A stretch of 64,000 nucleotides of DNA, from positions 399,461 through 463,460 of the forward strand of contig JAZDNT010000003.1 of assembly GCA_043799405.1 (NCBI GenBank), read 5' to 3'. Both the position numbers and the translations under genes were made by a program. The stretch is from Candidatus Kerfeldbacteria bacterium. Lineage in GTDB: Bacteria; Patescibacteriota; Patescibacteriia; SBBC01. Below are positions 8,380-59,631 of this stretch, piece by piece. Under the pieces are notes generated by a model that saw only the letters and a program-made list of their open reading frames with translations, did no database searches and was not told the origin of the DNA. Each line of letters starts with the position of its first letter. Within the stretch, counting starts at the first letter, position 1.

Positions 8380-9315
8380 CTATTCTTTGACCGCAGTGAC
8401 GGTCATCGTCTGACCGTATCCTGTACATGAAAGCACGACCTCGACCGGGATGAATAACAACCGGATGAGGTACCGCGCAACGGATTGGAATAGTAACTTG
8501 TGCAGCTTCGGATTCTTGTCCTGCAGCAGCACGCCGAAATTGTCCATCTGATCACCGAAAAAATTCACGTACGAAATCTTGACTGTCTTGAAGCCCTGCT
8601 GACGCAGCAAGAGCCGCATCGAACCGTTCGTGAACAGCACGACGTGCCGCGGAATATCGTAGTAGTACTTCGTGTGCGACCCGAACCATTTCCCCATCGA
8701 GTTGATGTTCGGGGTCTGCAAGACGAGTTCGCCGCCCTTCTTGAGCTTCCGGTACGCCAGCGCAGCGAATATTTTTGGATCGGGCATGTGTTCGATCACG
8801 TGCGAACCCCGGATTGAATCGAAAAAATCATCGGAATAGACGGAGAGGTCCTTTTCGGTGCCCAAACGCACGTTGTCGAGGCCATGGCTGTGGCAGGTGT
8901 CCACGGCGATGCTACTGATGTCCATCCCATACACATCAAATCCGGCGTTCTTCAACAGGTGCAGAATGTCACCGCATGCACACCCGAAATCAAGGATCCG
9001 TCCGGTCTTCGAAGGAAGCGCGGATACGAACTGTCCGAAAAATTCGGCTATCTTCTTCCACGCGATTTTTCGTGTCGCACGGTATCTCTCTTTAATGATC
9101 CATTCCTTTGCCCTAAACTGCAATGTCCTGTTGCTCTGGAGATCGACGTAGTAATCCGATTGGTAGAACTCGGACAGGTTATCCGGCGGTACGATAAACT
9201 CCGTGTGGCAGTCTCTGCAGCGAAAGACGTCAAATGTTCCCGGCATCGTCTTCCGCCTATCGCGCTGGGAGAACAGAAATTTCGCGACATCACTACCGCA
9301 CACGGGACATTTCAT
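8380..9315 (-). CDS. Class I SAM-dependent methyltransferase with N-terminal zinc ribbon
   Basis: MKCPVCGS...FRCRDCHTEF is a CxxC...CxxC ribbon. ILDFGCACGDIL is a SAM-binding motif I. An alternative start is at 9342. The longer track ORF (to 9618) overlaps the upstream gene and is unlikely. Confidence 0.75.
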   Translation of the reverse strand: MKCPVCGSDVAKFLFSQRDRRKTMPGTFDVFRCRDCHTEFIVPPDNLSEFYQSDYYVDLQSNRTLQFRAKEWIIKERYRATRKIAWKKIAEFFGQFVSALPSKTGRILDFGCACGDILHLLKNAGFDVYGMDISSIAVDTCHSHGLDNVRLGTEKDLSVYSDDFFDSIRGSHVIEHMPDPKIFAALAYRKLKKGGELVLQTPNINSMGKWFGSHTKYYYDIPRHVVLFTNGSMRLLLRQQGFKTVKISYVNFFGDQMDNFGVLLQDKNPKLHKLLFQSVARYLIRLLFIPVEVVLSCTGYGQTMTVTAVKE

Positions 9316-36701: not shown

Positions 36702-37283
36702 CTATCTAGTTGCAGCCGGTGGTTCTTTTGTCGAACCGCGGGCGAGAACCTGATCGAGAAGGTCTGGTTCGTTATCCTGTAATTCCGCCAGGTACATTCT
36801 TACGTTACTAGACGCGGGCGTCCGACACTCGGCCGCGGCGAGCGCGAAGGCCACAGCGCGATGATGACCTTCGAGCAGTACGATCCGACCATCCGGTTTC
36901 CGGAGACCGATCATCGTGGTCGGCGCGGTAAACGACTCGCTCATTTTTCTGATATCAGCTCGGGCTGACCATTCGCTCTTTTGTGCTGGATCCGCGAGCA
37001 GGTCGGCGAACGTGGTCTCGTTCTTTTTCGTCACCCGCGCCTGCCATCCTGAATACGGGCCAATGAACATGGCAGGTATTTCGGTAGCCGGCTCGGACAG
37101 CTCATAGAGTGCCCACGCACGATCCGCTAGCCGGAGCTGAGTTGCGGTAAACGTCCTCCATGACGTCCAGTCCGGCCAGCCTTTAATTTCGGTCGCAGTC
37201 TTGATCCAGCCCGGGTTCGTCGCTTCTCGCGAGGTCCAGTCGGCGAAAACCTCGGACCAGTTCGAATCACGAAGCTTTTTCAT
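36702..37283 (-). CDS. Hypothetical protein with a possible ParB/sulfiredoxin-like motif
   Basis: 193-aa ORF. IVLLEGHHRAVAFALAAA resembles the (D/E)GHHR motif of ParB-like nuclease domains. This is a weak single-motif call. Confidence 0.5.
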   Translation of the reverse strand: MKKLRDSNWSEVFADWTSREATNPGWIKTATEIKGWPDWTSWRTFTATQLRLADRAWALYELSEPATEIPAMFIGPYSGWQARVTKKNETTFADLLADPAQKSEWSARADIRKMSESFTAPTTMIGLRKPDGRIVLLEGHHRAVAFALAAAECRTPASSNVRMYLAELQDNEPDLLDQVLARGSTKEPPAATR

Positions 37284-37376
37284 ACACCTAAAATATCATA
37301 ACAATAGTAAGCCCTCAATGTCGTACATGGTCGGGGTGATCCCACCCATCGGCGGGACGACCTTCCCGCTCCACAG

Positions 37377-37551
37377 TCGGGGTACCGAGATTCGAACTCG
37401 GGACCTTCCCGCTCCAGTCGGGGTGACTGGACTTGAACCAGCGACCTCTTGGTCCCAAACCAAGCGCTCTAGCCAGCTGAGCTACACCCCGACTGGAGCG
37501 GGACGCGCGGACTTTACCCCGCCGGATGGCGGGGAGCTGCGCTATACCCCG
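37377..37551 (-). pseudogene. tRNA-Pro-like shell U2, split by the intact tRNA-Pro
   Basis: The 5' half is CGGGGTA TA GCGC [30-nt D-loop containing the hairpin CCCCGCC ATCC GGCGGGG] GCGC G TCCCG CTCCAGT. The 3' half is CTGGAG CGGGA AGGTC CCGAG TTCGAAT CTCGG TACCCCG A. The acceptor (7/7), anticodon stem and T arm are intact, but there is no anticodon loop and no G18G19. Confidence 0.6.
37418..37491 (-). tRNA. tRNA-Pro (anticodon TGG), no encoded CCA
   Basis: The minus strand reads CGGGGTG TA GCTC AGCTGGCTA GAGC G CTTGG TTTGGGA CCAAG AGGTC GCTGG TTCAAGT CCAGT CACCCCG A. All four stems are Watson-Crick, and C1:G72 with A73 is typical of bacterial tRNA-Pro. Confidence 0.9.
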
Positions 37552-37634
37552 ACTGTGGTGCGGGACGCGCATCTTTTTCTGCGCCAATCCCCGTCATGCC
37601 GACTCTACCAAGTTCTGCCCCAGCCGACAAGCGA

Positions 37635-37943
37635 TTATATGAGCGCGACGGTAACAAGGGCCGTTACCGTTATAAGCGCAAGCCACCCGATCGTCATCAC
37701 AACCGCAGTAATCGCCTCCCGTTTCTGTCCGTTCATGAAAAGGACAGCCGGGTAGCCGAACACAAGGCTTCCGACGACCGCGGCCGATACACAAAAAAGC
37801 AGCAGGAACGCGGTCGCGGCGAGAACCGTCGTCATCTGGCCGAACAGGCGTTCGCCATTTCGCATGATCGTTGCGACGACTGCGACGTACGCCGCGACGC
37901 CGAGCGCGTTCAAAAGGGTCCTTGATACAACCGATTTTTGCAT
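37635..37943 (-). CDS. Small three-TM membrane protein
   Basis: The start is chosen at MQKSVVSRTLLNALGVAAYVAVV. The protein is hydrophobic and lies downstream of the TSP3-repeat protein gene. Confidence 0.55.
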   Translation of the reverse strand: MQKSVVSRTLLNALGVAAYVAVVATIMRNGERLFGQMTTVLAATAFLLLFCVSAAVVGSLVFGYPAVLFMNGQKREAITAVVMTIGWLALITVTALVTVALI

Positions 37944-37975
37944 ATCGATGATTCGATTATAGCTATAGAGTAGAC

Positions 37976-39301
37976 TTACGGCGCGACGAACGTCGCATCC
38001 GCCGATGTAGTGCACTTCGGGTTCGGTGCGGTCGAGCAGCCGCGTATCGCGTAGTGGTACGTCGTTCCGGATGTTACGGTAAACGAAATCGCGTGGCTCT
38101 TCGTGAACGCGAAGTCGCTCCGATGGCTTCCGTACGCCGTGGTTGGTCCCCAGTTGACGATCCCGTCTGCCGATACGTCAGTCGACCAGCTGACCGTCGC
38201 CTGTCCGCCGCTAAACGTTACCGTTGTGCCGGAGATGACCGGCGCGGTCGAATTCTTCATGCGTGCCCAGCGTGCAGACTGTTCGTCAGTCGCGGCACCA
38301 GGACCTAATGGGTTCGACTTCTGATCAACCTCCGTCTTATCACTAACGCCGTCGCCATCCGTGTCCTTATAGAGCGGCGACGTTTCATACGCGTAGAATT
38401 CATCACCGTCTTTTAATCCATCACCGTCAGTGTCTGCTTTATCCGTTTTCGTACCAATCAGAAGCTCAACGCGGTTCACGAGCCCGTCCTTATCAGTATC
38501 GTTCGACTGGTCTTTCAGCACTGCGGGAGTATTTTCCGAATCCGGCCAGTTCTTCGGGAAGATGTACACGGTGAACTGGATATCGTTCCGGACGCCCATA
38601 GTGTAGCCATCGTCGCACGTGTACTGCGCTCCATAGACCTTGGGGTGCGCGAGCGACTTGTAGTAGTTAATGTCGCACTCACCCGGTTCCGTTGAGATCT
38701 TCTGCACGATTGTCTGGTCCTCCGGATCGACGTTGCGGAACGTGAATGTTAACGGTACTGCAGGGTCAAAGACACCGAGACGCTGCGCGTAGAACCTTCC
38801 GGTGATCATCGCGTTCCTGTTCGTGCAGTCGCCGCTGTAGAGGCCGAGCGGCACGGTCGTTACCGCGTCCGGCGTGTACGATAGATAGACCGCGGCTGCC
38901 GAGCACCACCAGTTCGTCATAAGATACATCGGGCCTAATGGAGCATCCGCAAGGAATTCCTCCCTGGTGATCATGGTCGGTTTCGACGCGCCCGATGCGG
39001 CGTTACCGGGATTCACATCGCCGTAGTTATACAGGTCGAGCTGCGGACCCTGTTGTTCGACCGTTTTCAACACCTTGTGATTATCGTCAGAAAGGTACTT
39101 AAAGTAGTTCACGATCGAGCTCTGCTTCGTCGCCTTGACCCGTTTCGCCTTCTGGGTCACCTTTATCTGCTGGCGGTGCTTTACGGTCATTCCAGAAATA
39201 CGGATCTTCGTTGCTGCGTCTGCGGCGAATCCTGCGCAGAGAAACACCAGCAACGTCGCGATAATAAAACTCGGACGGAAATGCGTTCGTAGAATTTTCA
39301 T
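37976..39301 (-). CDS. Secreted protein with thrombospondin type-3-like Ca-binding repeats and a C-terminal FN3/PAP-N-like domain
   Basis: Signal-like N-terminus (FIIATLLVFLCAGFAADA). Three D-rich repeats: DTDKDGLVNRVE, DTDGDGLKDGDE and DTDGDGVSDKTE. The C-terminal ISGTTVTFSGGQATVSWSTDVSADGIVNWGPTTAYG is an FN3-like beta sandwich. Confidence 0.7.
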   Translation of the reverse strand: MKILRTHFRPSFIIATLLVFLCAGFAADAATKIRISGMTVKHRQQIKVTQKAKRVKATKQSSIVNYFKYLSDDNHKVLKTVEQQGPQLDLYNYGDVNPGNAASGASKPTMITREEFLADAPLGPMYLMTNWWCSAAAVYLSYTPDAVTTVPLGLYSGDCTNRNAMITGRFYAQRLGVFDPAVPLTFTFRNVDPEDQTIVQKISTEPGECDINYYKSLAHPKVYGAQYTCDDGYTMGVRNDIQFTVYIFPKNWPDSENTPAVLKDQSNDTDKDGLVNRVELLIGTKTDKADTDGDGLKDGDEFYAYETSPLYKDTDGDGVSDKTEVDQKSNPLGPGAATDEQSARWARMKNSTAPVISGTTVTFSGGQATVSWSTDVSADGIVNWGPTTAYGSHRSDFAFTKSHAISFTVTSGTTYHYAIRGCSTAPNPKCTTSADATFVAP

Positions 39302-39395
39302 ACGTAATTCATTAGCGGATAAATGCACAATTGGTGCGACTCTATCCTAACGCAAAAACGTCGTGTACGCCAATCGATGCATCATCATGGATCGC

Positions 39396-39736
39396 TGGTG
39401 CCGCGGATCAGAACCCCGTAACGCGAGGTTACTCCCCGCTTGGTGCCTGGGGTCAGAATCGAACTGACGACGCCTGCCTCTTCAGGGCAGCGCTCTACCA
39501 TTGAGCTACCCAGGCACCAAGCGGGGACTAAATGTTCACTCGCTTGAGATTATTCCTATCAATCGAACGGTCCTAGTATACGCCTCGCGTACGGGGCAGG
39601 TCGAACTGACAGAGTTTACCCCGAGCTTGCCTCGTGGACAGGCTCTTTCCCGCCACCTTAAATCCGAATCTTCAACGAAGGCGGGATCCCGCAGTAGGCG
39701 GGACAGGGCTGCGCTCTACTACTGAGCTACCGCGGC
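39396..39736 (-). pseudogene. tRNA-Phe-like shell interrupted by a 56-nt anticodon-loop insert and a T-loop insert that contains the intact tRNA-Phe
   Basis: The sequence is GCCGCGG TA GCTC AGTAGTA GAGC G CAGCC CTG [56 nt, 39703->39648] AAGA GCCTG ... GTCAG TTCGA [insert including tRNA-Phe] TT CTGAT CCGCGGC A CCA. The acceptor is 7/7. The CTGAAGA and TTCGATT loops are restored when the inserts are removed. The D-loop lacks GG, and the anticodon stem has a C-C mismatch. Confidence 0.55.
39441..39515 (-). tRNA. tRNA-Phe (anticodon GAA), CCA encoded
   Basis: The minus strand reads GCCTGGG TA GCTC AATGGTA GAGC G CTGCC CTGAAGA GGCAG GCGTC GTCAG TTCGATT CTGAC CCCAGGC A CCA. The cloverleaf is canonical. 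Confidence 0.9.
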
Positions 39737-39797
39737 ACCAAGAGATTTCATATTAAAAAACTACGCGCCGAAAGAATACCACAGCGATTCTTCCGAA

Positions 39798-40307
39798 TCA
39801 AGCGTGGGAAAAGATCTCGAGCGTCTTCTTCACCTCCTCGGGCACGCCGAGGATGCAGTCGTGCTGATCGACAGTTGTGGCGTCGACCCAGGCGAACCCG
39901 TCGAACTCATCTTCTGGGTAGACGACGTCGCCCGAGTTTGCCCGGCATGCGAACTTCGTGCAGACGACCGGCGTGCCGTCGGGCCGGCGGAAAACGACGC
40001 TGTCGATGTAATGGAAATCGAACACGTCGAGTCCGCTCTCCTCTTTTGCCTCCCGCGTCAGCATTTGTTCAACGAGGTGCTCCCAGTCGACGACATCGCC
40101 GTTCATGCGCGTCGGCGGAGTACCCGTCATATCCTTGTGCTCGAGCTTACCGCCGACCGGCGCGTACTTTCCCGGATGTGCGATCTCGTGCTTTGCGCGC
40201 TGCAGCAGCAGGCACTTCCCGTCCCGGTACACGATGGCTGTCGCAACGAAGTAGAACAGCTTTCCGGGCTTCGCCTTATCGAGCATGATCGGAGGAACTG
40301 GAATCAT
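39798..40307 (-). CDS. NUDIX hydrolase
   Basis: GGKLE...REAKEESGLD is a Nudix box (REx2EExGU) with an unusually long insertion between the G and RE parts. Confidence 0.7.
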   Translation of the reverse strand: MIPVPPIMLDKAKPGKLFYFVATAIVYRDGKCLLLQRAKHEIAHPGKYAPVGGKLEHKDMTGTPPTRMNGDVVDWEHLVEQMLTREAKEESGLDVFDFHYIDSVVFRRPDGTPVVCTKFACRANSGDVVYPEDEFDGFAWVDATTVDQHDCILGVPEEVKKTLEIFSHA

Positions 40308-49692: not shown

Positions 49693-50145
49693 TTAATTGC
49701 GTATATCCCTGTTCCGTAGCGCGACCCCGCTTAGTACAAACAACAACGCGACGTACGTTACGATAAGCCACGGCATGGAAAGCCAGTCCCACCATCCATG
49801 AACCGTGAATCTTGATACAGGCCAGAGCAACGGTGTCAAAAGTTCCCGGTGTCCTGGGATATCGATGAGAATATGCACAGCCCACGGCCACGTCACCATA
49901 TACACGCGGCGAAAGTACAGCATCGCGAACAGTGTCACCGCAGCCCACACGATGAGACTGTGGGATATATCATAGAGCGGTAGGGAGAAGCGGATGCGCC
50001 CTTCTGTTACCAGCCAGAACGTCGTTGCAGGAAGCCAGATGAGGTCGGGTAGAATACCAAATAACACGAGCCACTTCCAGTGATGCGGCGTTTTTTTCGC
50101 GCTGGCTATCACATACGTGACAAGCCCATGTGCAAGGATATCCAT
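49693..50145 (-). CDS. Membrane-bound metal-dependent hydrolase (YdjM/DUF457-like)
   Basis: 150 aa. MDILAHGL N-terminus, conserved His residues (SHS, HILIDIPGH) and 4 TM segments. Confidence 0.55.
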   Translation of the reverse strand: MDILAHGLVTYVIASAKKTPHHWKWLVLFGILPDLIWLPATTFWLVTEGRIRFSLPLYDISHSLIVWAAVTLFAMLYFRRVYMVTWPWAVHILIDIPGHRELLTPLLWPVSRFTVHGWWDWLSMPWLIVTYVALLFVLSGVALRNRDIRN

Positions 50146-50278
50146 ACCGTCGTTACTGCCAGGTCCGGCTCTGCCGGAAACCTCTTAATACGACCTCGCC
50201 TGCCTTCGCCGTAGCGAAGCTCCGGCTTCGCGCAGGCAGGTCATTATCAGCTCCGCCTAGCACCAGAACGGGCATTAT

Positions 50279-50661
50279 TGGAAGACATGTGAGGGATCGA
50301 ACCTCCGACCTCGTCATTACCTGCCCGCCGTACGGAGTTATCTTATCAAACGTCCTTTTGGTGGGCGATCCAGGACTCGAACCTGGGACCTCGTCATTAT
50401 CAGTGACGCGCTCTAACCATCTGAGCTAATCGCCCACCAAAAGGAAACTTGATATAAATTCTATTATTTATCCAGTTGTAACGTTCTGCAAACACTCCGT
50501 ACTCCGGTCACCGCTTTCTGCGGGATCCCGCCAGAGGCGGTGACAGGCGGGTCAGTGACCCCGCACAACTCGCTATCGCTCGTTTGCGGGGCAGGCGCGC
50601 TTCCTTCATCTAACCACCTGCCTGCCCGCCACAGTGGAGCGACGGCGGGAGCTACATGCCC
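50279..50661 (-). pseudogene. tRNA-Ile-like shell whose anticodon loop is interrupted by an insert that contains the intact tRNA-Ile
   Basis: The 5' part is GGGCATG TA GCTC [29-nt hairpin insert] AGGTGGTTA GATG ... GGTCA CTGA | CCCGCC.... The 3' part is ...GGCGGGCAGG | TAA TGACG AGGTC GGAGG TTCGATC CCTCA CATGTCT T CCA. The acceptor pairs 7/7 with two G-T wobbles. CTGATAA is restored when the insert is removed. The D stem is broken. Confidence 0.5.
50359..50435 (-). tRNA. tRNA-Ile (anticodon GAT), CCA encoded
   Basis: The minus strand reads GGGCGAT TA GCTC AGATGGTTA GAGC G CGTCA CTGATAA TGACG AGGTC CCAGG TTCGAGT CCTGG ATCGCCC A CCA. The cloverleaf is canonical. Confidence 0.9.
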
Positions 50662-50821
50662 ACCATCTGCCGACCTTCAATTTTCAAATTACTGCCCAAC
50701 CGACAGCGTGTCTAGGGTAACAAATTGTCCGTCCCAACACAACCCTTCCGGCAACGCGAGCGGCGTACCTTGCGTCGGTTCCTGGATTCTGGTATACTCA
50801 CGCTTTCGTTTTGATGATTGT

Positions 50822-56612: not shown

Positions 56613-56839
56613 TTGACCCCGTTAGAGAGCCGCATGAAAAACCATACACGCTCAGCTACCAAAAGAGAGTCACCAAAGGGACTCTCTAACGGGGTTGACA
56701 ATCTGGAATGCGGTAAGGCATGTCCCGTACCTTCGCGTGAGCGATGGTGCGGGAACGCAAGCGATCTGCGTCATGACCCGTCACGGACATTAGCAGAGGA
56801 CGTTTCACGTCCATAAGTCCTTCTCATGGTACGTCGCAT

Positions 56840-56917: not shown

Positions 56918-57472
56918 AGGATTTCCCGAGGAGAAGAACACGACCTCTAGGTTCACGCAGAAAGTACACAATCTGCGCTGAACTCGAAACGACTAGCCCG
57001 AAGGCGAGTCGCTTCAGGTCTCCCTAGAAAGGAGGTGATCCATCGACAGCTTCCGCTACCGATGCCTTGTTACGACTTAGCCCCTATCATCGAGCCTACC
57101 TTGGTTCCCCGTACGGGGCATTTCAGGTATTCCCGACTCTCTTGGCTTGACGGGCGGTGTGTACAAAGCCCGAGAACGTATTCACCGCACCATGGCTGAT
57201 GCGCGGTTACTAGCGATTCCAGCTTCATGAGGGCGAGTTGCAGCCCTCAATCCGAACTGAGGGGTGGTTTGGTGGGATTGGCTCCGCCTTACGGCTTCGC
57301 AGCCCATTGTTACACCCCATTGTAGCACGTGTGTAGCCCAGGTCGTCAGAGGACCATGCTGACTTGACGTCATCCCTTCCTTCCTCACGCTTAAAGCGTG
57401 CAGTCTCGAGCGAATATTTTAACACTCGACAGGGGTTGCGCTCGTTAGGGGACTTAACCCAACAGCTCACGC

Positions 57473-57503
<31 letters not shown>

Positions 57504-57619
57504 TCAGCACCCTCGAAGGCTTCCCTAGTTTCCTAGGGCGTGCAGCTGAATTTCTAGACCTGGTAAGGTTCCTCGCTTAGCGTCGAATTGAACCACATGC
57601 TCCACCGCTTGTGCGGGCT

Positions 57620-57668
<49 letters not shown>

Positions 57669-57773
57669 GATGCTTATCGCGTTAGCTGACGATACTGCGA
57701 GGGTCGATACTCGCAACATCTAGCATCCATCGTTTACAGCGTGGACTACTGGGGTATCTACACGATTGTTACT

Positions 57774-57850
57774 TTCGGCGAGGAAACCTGAACGGTTTCC
57801 TCGTCCGATACCACTCCTTCCCTTTCATGGTGTCGATCCTTGCGCCTCGG
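57774..57850 (-). repeat. Module C (copy 2), at the 3' end of the 16S insertion
   Basis: TTCGGCGAGGAAACCTGAACGGTTTCCTCGTCCGATACCACTCCTTCCCT...CCTCGG matches about 46 of the first 50 positions of module D. It ends 13 nt inside the insertion. Confidence 0.8.
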
Positions 57851-58486
57851 CTAGGGTCCCGCCCTTCGGGCACCCTGATCCTCGGCGCTGCGGACTCGAC
57901 GTTCCATTTTGTCCCCTCCTCATGTGAGGAGGGGTGTCCGGTCGAATGACCGGACGGGGTGGTCGTGGTATGGACGCATCATTTCTGTGCGTCTCTGCAT
58001 GTCGCCATGCAGGTCAGACTATATCTTTCACCCGAAGGGTGACTCGGCGTATAGTCGTTGAGGGGTTTAGTGCTCATCCAGTCGTTAGAAAGGTTAGGGT
58101 GAGGGTCGATGGATTCTATAGTTTATACACGCCGCTAACCCGTAGGCGTGTCACGCCCCGCAGTTTCCAGGCACGCGTTTTCGTGTCCCGCCTTAACAGA
58201 TCACGAAGCTGTTTTTCGACCCCCACCCACTTCTAAAGACCAAAAGAGCACTAAACTTCCCTGCGGGTTGTCTGCACCGAATGATTTTTACTGTTGCCAG
58301 TACATTCGGATACTCAGAGTTTCCCGCAAATAGCCAAGTTTATTTATTCTCGCCTTGCGACGAGAGAGGACATGAGGCTTTTTCTCTCCCTTCGATCGTA
58401 CCCCTACGATCTTTCAATCAATCACATCGCGAACGTGAATTTACTTCACGTGAGCGATACAACTGAAGGGAAGGGGGAGCATCAAC

Positions 58487-58565
58487 CCAGCACCATTTCT
58501 GCCTCCGACAAAACTCACAAACGATTTCCCATCGTCGAAGTTTTCAGAAGTAGAAATGATGCTGG
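58487..58565 (-). repeat. Module B (copy 2), at the 5' end of the 16S insertion
   Basis: It has the same 13-nt start, CCAGCACCATTTC. The other arm, CGTCGAAGTTTTCAGAAGTAGAAATGATGCTGG, matches about 28/33 against module A. It begins 12 nt inside the insertion. Confidence 0.8.
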
Positions 58566-59291
58566 GAGAATTGCTTTATCCCATTCGCTCCCCACGCTTT
58601 CGTTCGTTGAGTGTCAGGATCGTTCCAGCACACTGCCTTCGCTATTGGTGTTCTTGCCGATATTAACGCATTTTACCGCTACACCGGCAATTCCGTGTGC
58701 CTCTCCCGTCCTCGAGTTCCGTCGTATCACCTGCGGCCTCACGGTTGAGCCGTGAGATTTAACAGGAGACGTGCGGAACCACCGTTGAACGCTTTACGCC
58801 CAATAAATCCGGATAACGCTCGGGGCCTTCGTATTACCGCTGCTGCTGGCACGAAGTTAGCAGCCCCTTATTCCTTCGGTACACTCAGTGTTGTTCCCGA
58901 AGAAAAGCAGTTTACACCCCGAAGGGCTTCTTCCTGCACGCGGCGTCGCTCCCTCAGACTTTCGTCCATTGGGGAAGATTCTCGACTGCAGCCTCCCGTA
59001 GGAGTCTGGGCAGTGTCGCAGTCCCAGTGAGGCGGGTCGTGCTCTCACACCCGCTATCCGTCATAGCCTTGGTAGGCCATTACCCTACCAACAAGCTGAT
59101 GGACCATAGGCCCCTCCCAAGGTGGCTTGCGCCTTTACTCCCGTTCCATATGGATCGGGACATCATCCGGAATTAGCCCGTCTTTCGACGAGTTATACCG
59201 AGCCTCGGGGTAGGTTACCAATGTGTTACGCACCCGTTTGCCACTCATACCTGTATTGCTACAGATCTTCGTTCGACTTGCATGCCTAAGA

Positions 59292-59331
<40 letters not shown>

Positions 59332-59631
59332 ATAAATGACGCGTATGGGTTTGGCTCCCCATACACCGCGATTCGATTGTTGGGATGGACGAATCGCTTA
59401 AGCACCTAGAATTTGACGTTTATCCCGTGTTTGACACGGGATCTTGTGACGGACCGTCGGAGAACAGAGAGGGGAGCCGGTACCGAAAGAGCAAAAGTTA
59501 AGTCGCTCTGGACCTTTGATCTCTACCCTCGGTTCTCCGGCGATCGCGTCGTTTGCTTGCTTGTCCAGCACCGAACAGAGTTCTGGTGCTGGGTTCCTTA
59601 CCGCATTTCAGTTGTCAACGTACCGGATCGA

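Follow-up and report, generated by a model that had tools for sequence, protein, structure and literature searches.

In tRNA-dependent lysogeny of actinobacteriophages, a phage integrase disrupts an essential tRNA gene of the host and a tRNA encoded by the phage complements the loss (PMC10865867, Guerrero-Bustamante & Hatfull 2024). The GIY-YIG nuclease SegB of phage T4 cuts the tRNA-gene DNA of a naive genome and favours inheritance of its own tRNA region (PMC2330249, Brok-Volchanskaya et al. 2008). Stand-alone prokaryotic domains were recognized as the minimal GIY-YIG form in a survey from 2006 (PMC1564403), and the rRNA genes of Candidate Phyla Radiation (CPR) bacteria carry insertion sequences with homing endonucleases (PMC11270868). 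Here we describe a tRNA-Phe locus of a Candidatus Kerfeldbacteria bacterium in which an intact tRNA gene is located inside the pieces of a broken one. The locus is found on the minus strand of a 64-kb stretch of contig JAZDNT010000003.1; this whole stretch is called the window below, and positions are counted from its first nucleotide. A search of the literature gave no description of tRNA genes nested within tRNA genes, or of such a cassette family as the one described here.

We found that the resident tRNA-Phe gene is disrupted at the DNA level, that the replacement arrived in a repeat-bounded cassette, that the process recurs, and that members of the same cassette family carry a nuclease gene. 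Based on these observations, the locus is probably one in which a family of hairpin-bounded cassettes has replaced a tRNA gene in nested fashion, at the DNA level. That nuclease-driven homing is the engine of this process is put forward more tentatively, as a serious possibility rather than a probability.

The outer gene, here called the shell, consists of four pieces separated by three inserts (Table 1). In brief, the first piece encodes the acceptor 5' strand, the D-arm with G18 changed to A, the 5' strand of the anticodon stem and the CTG of the anticodon loop, and is 32/33 identical to the intact orthologue in the relatives L002 and L004. The 56-nt insert that follows is made up of two hairpins, TCCCGC CTACT GCGGGA and TCCCGCC..25 nt..GGCGGGA. 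In the next piece a G to C change in GCCTG gives a C-C mismatch in the anticodon stem. Between GCCTG and GTCAG, where the orthologue reads GCGTC, the window has the 28 nt TCCACGAGGCAAGCTCGGGGTAAACTCT. The third insert, the T-loop block, contains a spacer of about 56 nt with a promoter-like TCGACC-18-TATACT, and its inner arms CCCCGCTTGGT (39526-39516) and ACCAAGCGGGG (39444-39434) lengthen the acceptor stem of the inner tRNA-Phe. The acceptor stem of the shell has 7/7 pairs. Its T stem has one G.U pair (CTGAT), which may be an allele feature and not decay, since the shell in L132 has the same base.

Much of this was anticipated in the original prediction, which was made from the letters of the window. 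The outer 5' and 3' pieces and their 7/7 acceptor pairing can be read directly on the minus strand; removal of the 56-nt block restores CTGAAGA and removal of the T-loop block restores TTCGATT; and the T-loop block is closed by CCCCGTACGCGAGG / CCTCGCGTTACGGGG and holds a complete tRNA-Phe(GAA), as had been described. Both of its inserts are real, and the third interruption, the 28 nt in the variable loop, was overlooked. It also reported that G18G19 had been lost; G18 is indeed changed (AGTAGTA vs AGTGGTA) and G19 is kept.

From 39736 to 39396, ARAGORN and Rfam call the inner tRNA-Phe only, and not the shell. The third interruption accounts for the behaviour of the 98-nt product of two splices, in which ARAGORN calls no tRNA; a tRNA-Phe is called once the 28 nt are also swapped for GCGTC. 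The nested structure is the fold of the whole 355 nt (z = -7.7 vs shuffles). Leader and trailer pair over 0-2 bp at plain tRNAs vs 10-12 perfect bp at the nested tRNAs of the window. At the inner tRNA-Phe, 12 further bp extend the acceptor stem and the leader TGGT pairs with ACCA. The promoter-like TCGACC-18-TATACT inside the T-loop block spans the T-loop junction (39575-39604, minus strand). A promoter and terminator scan called this one site in the block and no promoter upstream of the shell. The inner tRNAs may own their promoters. In L132, a TATAAT is located approximately 16 nt upstream of the inner tRNA-Phe (2760-2800), and promoter-like -10 boxes are found in the 5' arms of cassettes.

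Relatives (loci numbered with L) were fetched via homologues of the protein whose gene separates the Phe locus from the Pro locus in the window; this protein is 100% identical to one of a Candidatus Kerfeldbacteria metagenome-assembled genome. This flanking protein is 58% identical to that of the window in L004 and 67% in L002, and the gene order NUDIX - tRNA-Phe - TSP3-repeat protein - tRNA-Pro is kept in both. L002 and L004 encode the same plain tRNA-Phe, GCCGCGGTAGCTCAGTGGTAGAGCGCAGCCCTGAAGAGGCTGGCGTCGTCAGTTCGATTCTGACCCGCGGCACCA (GCCGCGG...CCGCGGCACCA). The four shell pieces of the window are collinear with it and 67/70 identical. About 50-60 nt separate the NUDIX stop codon from the start of the gene in the window and L004, and GTTTTTGCGT is located directly 3' of the shell in the window and of the plain genes in L002 and L004. 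The 67/70 match at the syntenic position argues that the shell is the original chromosomal tRNA-Phe of the lineage. That it is a disrupted orthologue, and probably dead, is on these comparisons well supported. A profile search of genome contigs with the flanking protein gave one useful locus, L007, and an exact-sequence look-up of the NUDIX open reading frame (ORF) gave no match; its true start codon is probably different.

The inner tRNA-Phe differs from the orthologue at 7 positions, which are three compensated stem pairs and one D-loop base. By sequence comparison it is an allele of its own with an intact structure, brought in by the T-loop insert, and we presume that it is the working gene. 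Between the window and L001 the inner tRNA has 2/58 differences (one compensated pair), against 8/45 in the downstream shell and insert region (Fisher p=0.02); the shell region thus changes approximately five times faster than the inner tRNA. In addition, the shell has the features of a tRNA pseudogene, i.e. three insertions, G18A, the C-C mismatch and no call by ARAGORN or Rfam. The suggestion that the outer gene is tRNA-derived and probably non-functional is therefore borne out by the intact syntenic orthologues in L002 and L004, by the disabling changes and by the faster evolution. At most, the shell would be transcribed as a structured leader and trailer.

The arrangement is not restricted to tRNA-Phe. 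Nesting is seen at each of the three tRNA loci of the window: Phe, Pro with two shells, and Ile with at least one shell. The outermost Pro shell has lost its anticodon arm and T-loop, and several CCCGC(C)/(G)GCGGG hairpins are found throughout the Ile shell. Among the relatives, L001 encodes a nested tRNA-Pro and the 3' part of a homologous T-loop arrangement for Phe at the same T-loop position. L007 has a layered tRNA-Phe locus, and L130 and L132, from two metagenomes, have a multi-layer Phe locus that is identical over the displayed approximately 560 nt in both records. Nested loci were found in five independent assemblies (NCBI metagenome-assembled genome (MAG), Logan, ENA MAG, JGI and ORJL). 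Uninvaded alleles are also found in the relatives, namely plain tRNA-Phe and tRNA-Pro in L004 and plain tRNA-Pro in L002. Older shells lack the anticodon loop, the T-loop or a whole half, as in the outermost Pro shell, L001, L002 and L133.

Inverted repeats of the form YCCCG...CGGGR are the common ends of the inserts, several of which have a TAAASTC tail. The sequence CGGGRTAAASTC occurs without mismatch at tRNA loci only (two copies each in the window and L007, and one in L001), and 11/31 of the copies of CCCGCC/GGCGGG in the window are located in the three tRNA loci, which make up 1.6% of it (p ~1e-12). The longer TCCCGCC/GGCGGGA is clustered at tRNA loci and is not enriched window-wide. A scan for perfect CCCG...CGGG hairpins with 7-bp stems was noisy, with 16 hairpins where shuffles gave 6.6 on average and up to 17; such a scan is informative at stems of at least 9 bp only.

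The junctions are also shared. The junction TAAACTCT|(G/C)TCAG, preceded by ...GGGR, is found in the variable region in the window, L007 and L132; the junction TAAACTCCG|CCCTG is found in L007 and L132; and the T-loop junction CGGG(G/A)|TTCTGA is found in the window, L001 and L132, the last of which also has the TT|CTGAT junction. Between G34 and A35, where the window has the 56 nt, L132 has a 19-nt hairpin. Across loci, inserts are located in at least five positions of the tRNA, namely in the D-, anticodon, variable and T-loops and at the junction that precedes the anticodon stem. A homologous T-loop block follows TTCGA in both the window, where the outer acceptor is CCGCGGC, and L001, where it is CCCAGGC; the 5' half of L001 is off the contig, and inheritance with conversion is possible. 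In related Patescibacteria, repeat-bounded elements of this architecture are found empty, with a tRNA or with a minimal GIY-YIG gene.

Table 1. Features of the nested tRNA loci and related features in relatives. Positions refer to the window unless a relative is named.
Feature	Positions	Strand	Details
Shell 5' piece, tRNA positions 1-34	39704..39736	minus	GCCGCGG TA GCTC AGTAGTA GAGC G CAGCC CTG
Anticodon-loop insert, between G34 and A35	39648..39703	minus	56 nt, without cargo
Shell piece AAGA (anticodon loop) and GCCTG (anticodon stem 3' strand)	39639..39647	minus	
Hairpin with TAAACTCT tail in place of variable loop	39611..39638	minus	28 nt
Shell piece GTCAG (T stem 5' strand) and TTCGA (T-loop)	39601..39610	minus	10/10 vs orthologue
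T-loop insert (T-loop block)	39414..39600	minus	187 nt; outer arms at 39596-39583 and 39428-39414
Inner intact tRNA-Phe(GAA)	39441..39515	minus	ARAGORN; Rfam tRNA 69.7 bits; acceptor GCCTGGG/CCCAGGC; CCA encoded
Shell 3' end TT CTGAT CCGCGGC A CCA	39396..39413	minus	T-loop TT, T stem, acceptor 3' strand, CCA
tRNA-Pro locus	37328..37593	minus	Intact tRNA-Pro(TGG) 37491-37418 inside two shells; fold z = -9.2
Pro outermost shell	37593-37552 and 37376-37328	minus	5' end CGGGGATTGGCGCAG = plain tRNA-Pro of L002/L004
Pro middle shell	37551-37492 and 37417-37377	minus	D-loop hairpin CCCCGCCATCCGGCGGGG+TAAAGTC at 37534-37510
tRNA-Ile locus	50231..50661	minus	Intact tRNA-Ile(GAT) 50435-50359 inside shell; fold z = -7.6
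Ile shell	50661-50649 ... 50319-50279	minus	GGGCATGTAGCTC ... TAATGACGAGGTCGGAGGTTCGATCCCTCACATGTCTTCCA; 3' end at 50279 reads CATGTCTTCCA
Uninterrupted tRNA-Phe orthologues	L002 8399-8473; L004 1500-1574		Between NUDIX and TSP3-repeat genes
Arms TCCCGC(C)/(G)GCGGGA			56-nt insert; both Pro layers; L001 Pro; L007 Phe
Arms CCCCGC/GCGGGG			Around inner Phe
Arms CCCCGTA.../...TACGGGG			Around T-loop block; around L132 Phe cassette
L132 broken tRNA-Ala, first part			Three short hairpins, arms TCC(C/G)CG.../...CG(A)GGA
L132 broken tRNA-Ala, second part			19-bp inverted repeat TCCCGATTTCTATAAATG ... CATTTATAGAAATCGAGGA around 81-aa ORF; start and stop codons within repeat
L132 broken tRNA-Ala, directly after the ORF repeat			Cassette TCCTCGACAGTTTGGGT-[intact tRNA-Ala]-CCCAAACTGTCGGGA (TCCTCG..inner tRNA-Ala..CGGGA)

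Some further observations were made at these loci. At the Pro locus, CCA is encoded by the outermost shell only, whereas the middle and inner copies stop at ...CCCCGA; where the outer anticodon arm would be, the cassette arms TCCCGC/GCGGGA are found. Interruptions of the Ile shell are located in the D-loop, ahead of the anticodon stem and at 35/36 of the anticodon loop, and two more 3' fragments are found downstream in this locus (50319-50279, and an anticodon-arm fragment at 50251-50231). L002 (8252-8375) and L007 (3520-3645) have a homologous 5' fragment of a tRNA-Phe, G(C/T)CGCGGTAGC...AGAGCGCA, upstream of an intact tRNA-Phe and with a D-loop insert of approximately 100 nt. The central hairpin of this fragment shows compensatory changes (GCGAGTGAA/TTCACTCGC vs GCACGTGAA/TTCACGTGC), so the hairpin is kept though the fragment is no tRNA.

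Two further copies of TCCCGCC/GGCGGGA in the window were considered as hairpin inserts and rejected: that at 57664-57670 is native 16S sequence (CCGCCTGGGGAGTACG), and that at 58186 lies within a group I intron. The 16S gene (57028-59337, minus strand, 2310 nt) contains this group I intron at 57995-58425 (Rfam 62.7 bits) and approximately 350 nt more of inserted sequence after model position 720. There is no 23S gene in the window; the tRNA-Ile is located 6.6 kb downstream of the 16S gene, with protein-coding genes between. A perfect 12-bp hairpin, CCCCGTTAGAGAG...CTCTCTAACGGGG, with a tRNA-5'-like TTTTGGTAGCTGAGCG in its 52-nt loop, is located at 56618-56693 (minus strand), 335 nt downstream of the 16S gene, with a terminator-like hairpin after it. 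The 12-bp hairpin may be what erosion has left of a cassette.

The connection to a nuclease comes from the relatives. The tRNA-Ala locus of L132 and L130 is nested, with a broken outer tRNA-Ala around inserts and an inner tRNA-Ala. The 81-aa ORF within the broken gene of L132 is a GIY-YIG catalytic domain (Pfam PF01541, E = 4e-16). We examined four homologues of this ORF in their context, L133, L134, L135 and L136. In the first three, the nuclease ORF runs into the 5' end of a tRNA-Glu. The C-terminal ...GPIV* of L133 and L135 is encoded by GGYCCYATCGTCTAR of the inner tRNA-Glu, which ARAGORN calls in L133 only, because the L135 contig ends inside the copy. The ORF of L134 ends (...GPIPGRH*) in a tRNA-Glu 5' fragment that is followed by a hairpin. 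Upstream of each of these three ORFs is a 5' fragment of an outer tRNA-Glu interrupted by hairpins, and in L133 the 3' end of the outer tRNA-Glu is present downstream. In L135, a remnant of an older ORF end is joined to a tRNA 5' end.

The arms of the interrupting hairpins in L133 and L135, TCCCGATTTCT/AGAAATCGAGGA, are identical to the terminal inverted repeat of L132. Identical arms of 11-12 nt are thus found around a nuclease gene in one genome and as empty hairpins in two others. L136 (1-900), from an AT-rich genome outside the candidate-phyla bacteria, has tandem units in which an ORF of this family is fused to fragments of the 3' part of tRNA-Met. With a cut-off of E<=1e-10, a profile search gave at least 5867 proteins of the family, distributed over Patescibacteria and Bacteroidota. 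Some members (P0156, P0186 and P0238) have N- or C-terminal tails that look like translated tRNA, e.g. GSEHLPYKQGVTGSNP and AGSEHPD. On the evidence of L136 and of these tails, association with tRNA genes may be a family-wide trait. In L007 (8440-9000) we found a different small GIY-YIG gene (8520-8840), flanked by repeated GTCATCCTGAACTTGTYTCAGGATYTC-type hairpins and with no adjoining tRNA.

We suggest, with some reserve, that these cassettes might represent a new class of selfish element, in which cassettes with a GIY-YIG gene of about 80 codons invade tRNA loops and bring a replacement tRNA, ORF-less derivatives persist, and layers build up. The nuclease would first cut an intact tRNA gene, and repair would copy the nuclease gene and the replacement tRNA from an invaded allele. 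Only cassettes whose tRNA cargo matches the destroyed single-copy gene would survive, and such matching would explain why we see Phe in Phe, Pro in Pro, Ala in Ala and Glu in Glu. Decay of the nuclease ORF, the usual course of a homing cycle, would then leave hairpins and tRNA cassettes without an ORF, as seen in the window, and repeated invasion of the inner copy would add layers like those of a Russian doll. The extended inner acceptor stem probably insulates the folding of the inner tRNA or offers a double-strand processing site, and RNase P and 3' trimming would finish its ends. Insertions may be confined to loops because the cut depends on structure and falls on tRNA-gene DNA that is extruded or single-stranded, or because selection acted at a time when the host still relied on the tRNA.

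It should be noted that several observations weigh against this proposal. A GIY-YIG gene, or a detectable ORF remnant of one, is found neither in the 64-kb window nor in its three tRNA loci, and when 11 GIY-YIG proteins were compared by tblastn with the tRNA loci of the window and the relatives, the outcome was noise only. (A reading RILGPFD* in the T-loop block resembles the nuclease tails ...RLIGPIV*; this resemblance is too weak and was not used.) The window is linked to the nuclease by short end motifs and shared architecture, and not by long sequence identity, through a chain of homologous junctions that runs from the window via the Phe locus of L007 and L132 to the Ala locus of L132. We know of no nuclease of this family for which cutting of a tRNA gene has been shown, and the family proteins consist of the catalytic domain only, without an obvious DNA-binding domain. 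A BLAST search with the 56-nt insert, the 28-nt insert and the flanks of the T-loop block against the window and the loci gave no second copy of any of them, and neither the 56-nt nor the 187-nt block recurs in exact form elsewhere in the window. The acceptor of the shell is still perfect and the shell has just three substitutions, so that its inactivation must be recent or incomplete. The original idea of a mobile element family, for which a second copy of the blocks was to be sought, holds in altered form: the exact blocks occur once in the window, and it is the end motifs that recur at other tRNA loci and in other genomes.

The alternative with the best standing, though unlikely, is local growth without any mobile element, by template switching during replication at the inverted repeats of the tRNA gene and local duplications, which would have made the hairpins, the perfect stems of leader and trailer and the additional tRNA copies on the spot. 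Quasipalindrome correction yields perfect palindromes, and the perfect palindromes of 17-19 bp that continue the acceptor stem are what it would give. The uniqueness of the exact blocks in the window fits as well; in BLAST searches with the 56-nt insert, the 28-nt insert and the flanks of the T-loop block, only a short palindrome, GCGGGATCCCGC, was common with the Ile locus. However, several compensated stem pairs separate the inner from the outer tRNAs, which are therefore not recent copies of each other, and the same end motifs are found at Phe, Pro, Ala and Glu loci in different genomes. Local growth also does not account for arms that are identical whether they enclose a nuclease gene, as in one genome, or form empty hairpins, as in two others, nor for a T-loop block located in a host of GCCGCGG type in the window and in one with a CCCAGGC-type 3' acceptor in L001.

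Slightly less likely still is that the inserts are scars of tyrosine integrases, i.e. that elements repeatedly entered attachment (att) sites in the anticodon and T loops and then decayed, one of the two explanations offered in the original prediction. These loops are reportedly classical att sublocations, and in L007 and L132 3' halves or ends of tRNA-Phe are duplicated a few tens of nt apart, resembling attL and attR. Disruption and complementation by phage tRNAs is also documented (PMC10865867). Against this, a Pfam scan of the 47 ORFs of the window found no integrase, transposase or other recombinase, no recombinase is among the called genes of the relatives' loci, and the sole mobile-element gene found in this architecture is the GIY-YIG nuclease. 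The shell retains its 5' part as far as the T-loop and surrounds a complete gene, which is not the product of an integrase crossover; thus there is no direct repeat of the 3' segment in the window. Insertions are found in the D-loop and variable loop too, giving at least five tRNA positions in all, and the insert boundaries are inverted and not direct repeats. Scans of viral contigs gave no sign of a phage donor, since neither found a real match: the 14-mer TGCGGGATAAACTC had 120 chance matches (loci L010-L129), which are noise, and the 18-mer TAAACTCTGTCAGTTCGA had none.

The other explanation offered was removal at the RNA level, in which a working outer tRNA-Phe would have its helix-closed inserts cut out and its exons ligated, as in archaeal multi-intron tRNAs. 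Every insert is indeed located in a loop and closed by a helix, removal of two of them restores perfect anticodon and T loops next to the 7/7 acceptor, and tRNA introns are known in Patescibacteria (PMC13011429). Nevertheless, we regard it as very improbable. A bulge-helix-bulge (BHB) motif, which places two bulges of 3 nt with 4 bp between them at the exon-intron junctions, is not present; CTG^TCCCGCC...GGCGGGA^AAGA and TTCGA^CCTGCCCCG...ACGGGG^TT abut continuous helices without staggered bulges. An Rfam search at E<=5 of 37200-39850 and 50050-50800 gave only tRNAs and chance matches, with no group I intron (RF00028) or ribozyme, whereas the same library does detect the 16S group I intron at 57995-58425; moreover, 56 nt is far under the size of a group I intron. 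The variable loop is replaced and not just interrupted; three removals would be needed and would still not bring it back, and the product of two splices is no tRNA. The shell has G18A and the C-C mismatch, an intact, redundant tRNA gene is located inside it, and no RtcB-like or EndA-like protein was found by the Pfam scan among the 47 ORFs of the window (64 kb of the genome). Taken together, the faster change of the shell, its disabling changes, the arms lost from older shells, and the absence of a BHB motif and of an intron make removal at the RNA level unlikely.

Finally, MAGs of strain mixtures can misjoin at conserved tRNA segments, so tRNA-Phe alleles of a mixed population could be imagined to have been collapsed or joined into a chimera during assembly, but we give this virtually no credence, since the recurrence of the nesting in five independent assemblies excludes an assembly error, L130 equals L132 across the displayed Phe region in separate records, and symmetric, helix-closed nesting with z from -7.6 to -9.2 does not look like a misassembly.

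Selfish inserts in essential genes are spliced from the RNA if they are introns and from the protein if they are inteins. If replacement by cassettes is correct, it is a third route of survival in an essential gene, namely to carry a spare copy of the gene that is destroyed; something similar is so far known for whole prophages only. Single-copy tRNA genes of very small genomes would then be replaceable by foreign alleles without a lethal intermediate, and tRNA-like debris that confuses annotation would be expected around the tRNA loci of candidate-phyla bacteria. If the nuclease also drives the process, the stand-alone GIY-YIG family, with its at least 5867 proteins, would be tRNA-gene homing endonucleases and a main driver of tRNA turnover in reduced genomes, which is a concrete proposed function for a very large and unstudied family of catalytic-domain-only proteins. 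The layered shells would be a fossil record of successive invasions that could be used to date and trace the exchange of tRNAs between lineages.

The palindromic elements of Rickettsia and the GC clusters of yeast mitochondria are small palindromic insertions in structural RNA or coding genes. They resemble the inserts described here in being short GC-rich hairpins in genes for structured RNA, and differ in that they bring no replacement gene. The insertions in CPR rRNA genes (PMC11270868) show that CPR bacteria tolerate many insertions in genes of the translation apparatus. Those insertions are removed or tolerated, the gene stays functional and there is no replacement gene, whereas here the host gene is abandoned. 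The archaeal multiple-intron, split and permuted tRNAs with BHB motifs (PMC4090602, PMC3218864) have interruptions at non-canonical positions in the D-, anticodon, variable and T-loops that are helix-closed, with GC-rich complementary flanks. Our locus is from a bacterium and lacks the BHB motif, and the interrupted gene is decaying and redundant with the intact inner gene. The group I introns that Patescibacteria carry in their tRNA genes (PMC13011429, Nakagawa et al. 2026) come from the same phylum and are anticodon-loop insertions, and the interruption of the Ile shell at 35/36 is at the site highlighted for them. The inserts described here have no group I fold according to Rfam, are too short, carry tRNA cargo and come with no evidence of splicing. 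The likeness to these introns, and to the archaeal BHB introns, is one of position only.

Two systems come closer. SegB (PMC2330249) is encoded by a GIY-YIG gene embedded among the tRNA genes of the T4 tRNA cluster. It is located between genes, with no nesting and no hairpin-bounded cassette, and is longer than the 80-aa proteins that consist of the catalytic domain only; the copies in the window are ORF-less. In tRNA-dependent lysogeny (PMC10865867), as here, a mobile element enters an essential host tRNA gene without rebuilding it. That element is a whole temperate phage, which uses a tyrosine integrase and an att core of approximately 10 bp at one defined site. The inserts here are 19-300 nt, are located in several loops, are bounded by inverted repeats and come with no integrase; the replacement is located inside the broken gene, and layers accumulate. 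SegB is thus the nearest enzymatic analogue and tRNA-dependent lysogeny the nearest functional analogue, and the arrangement is a new variation on known strategies of selfish elements.

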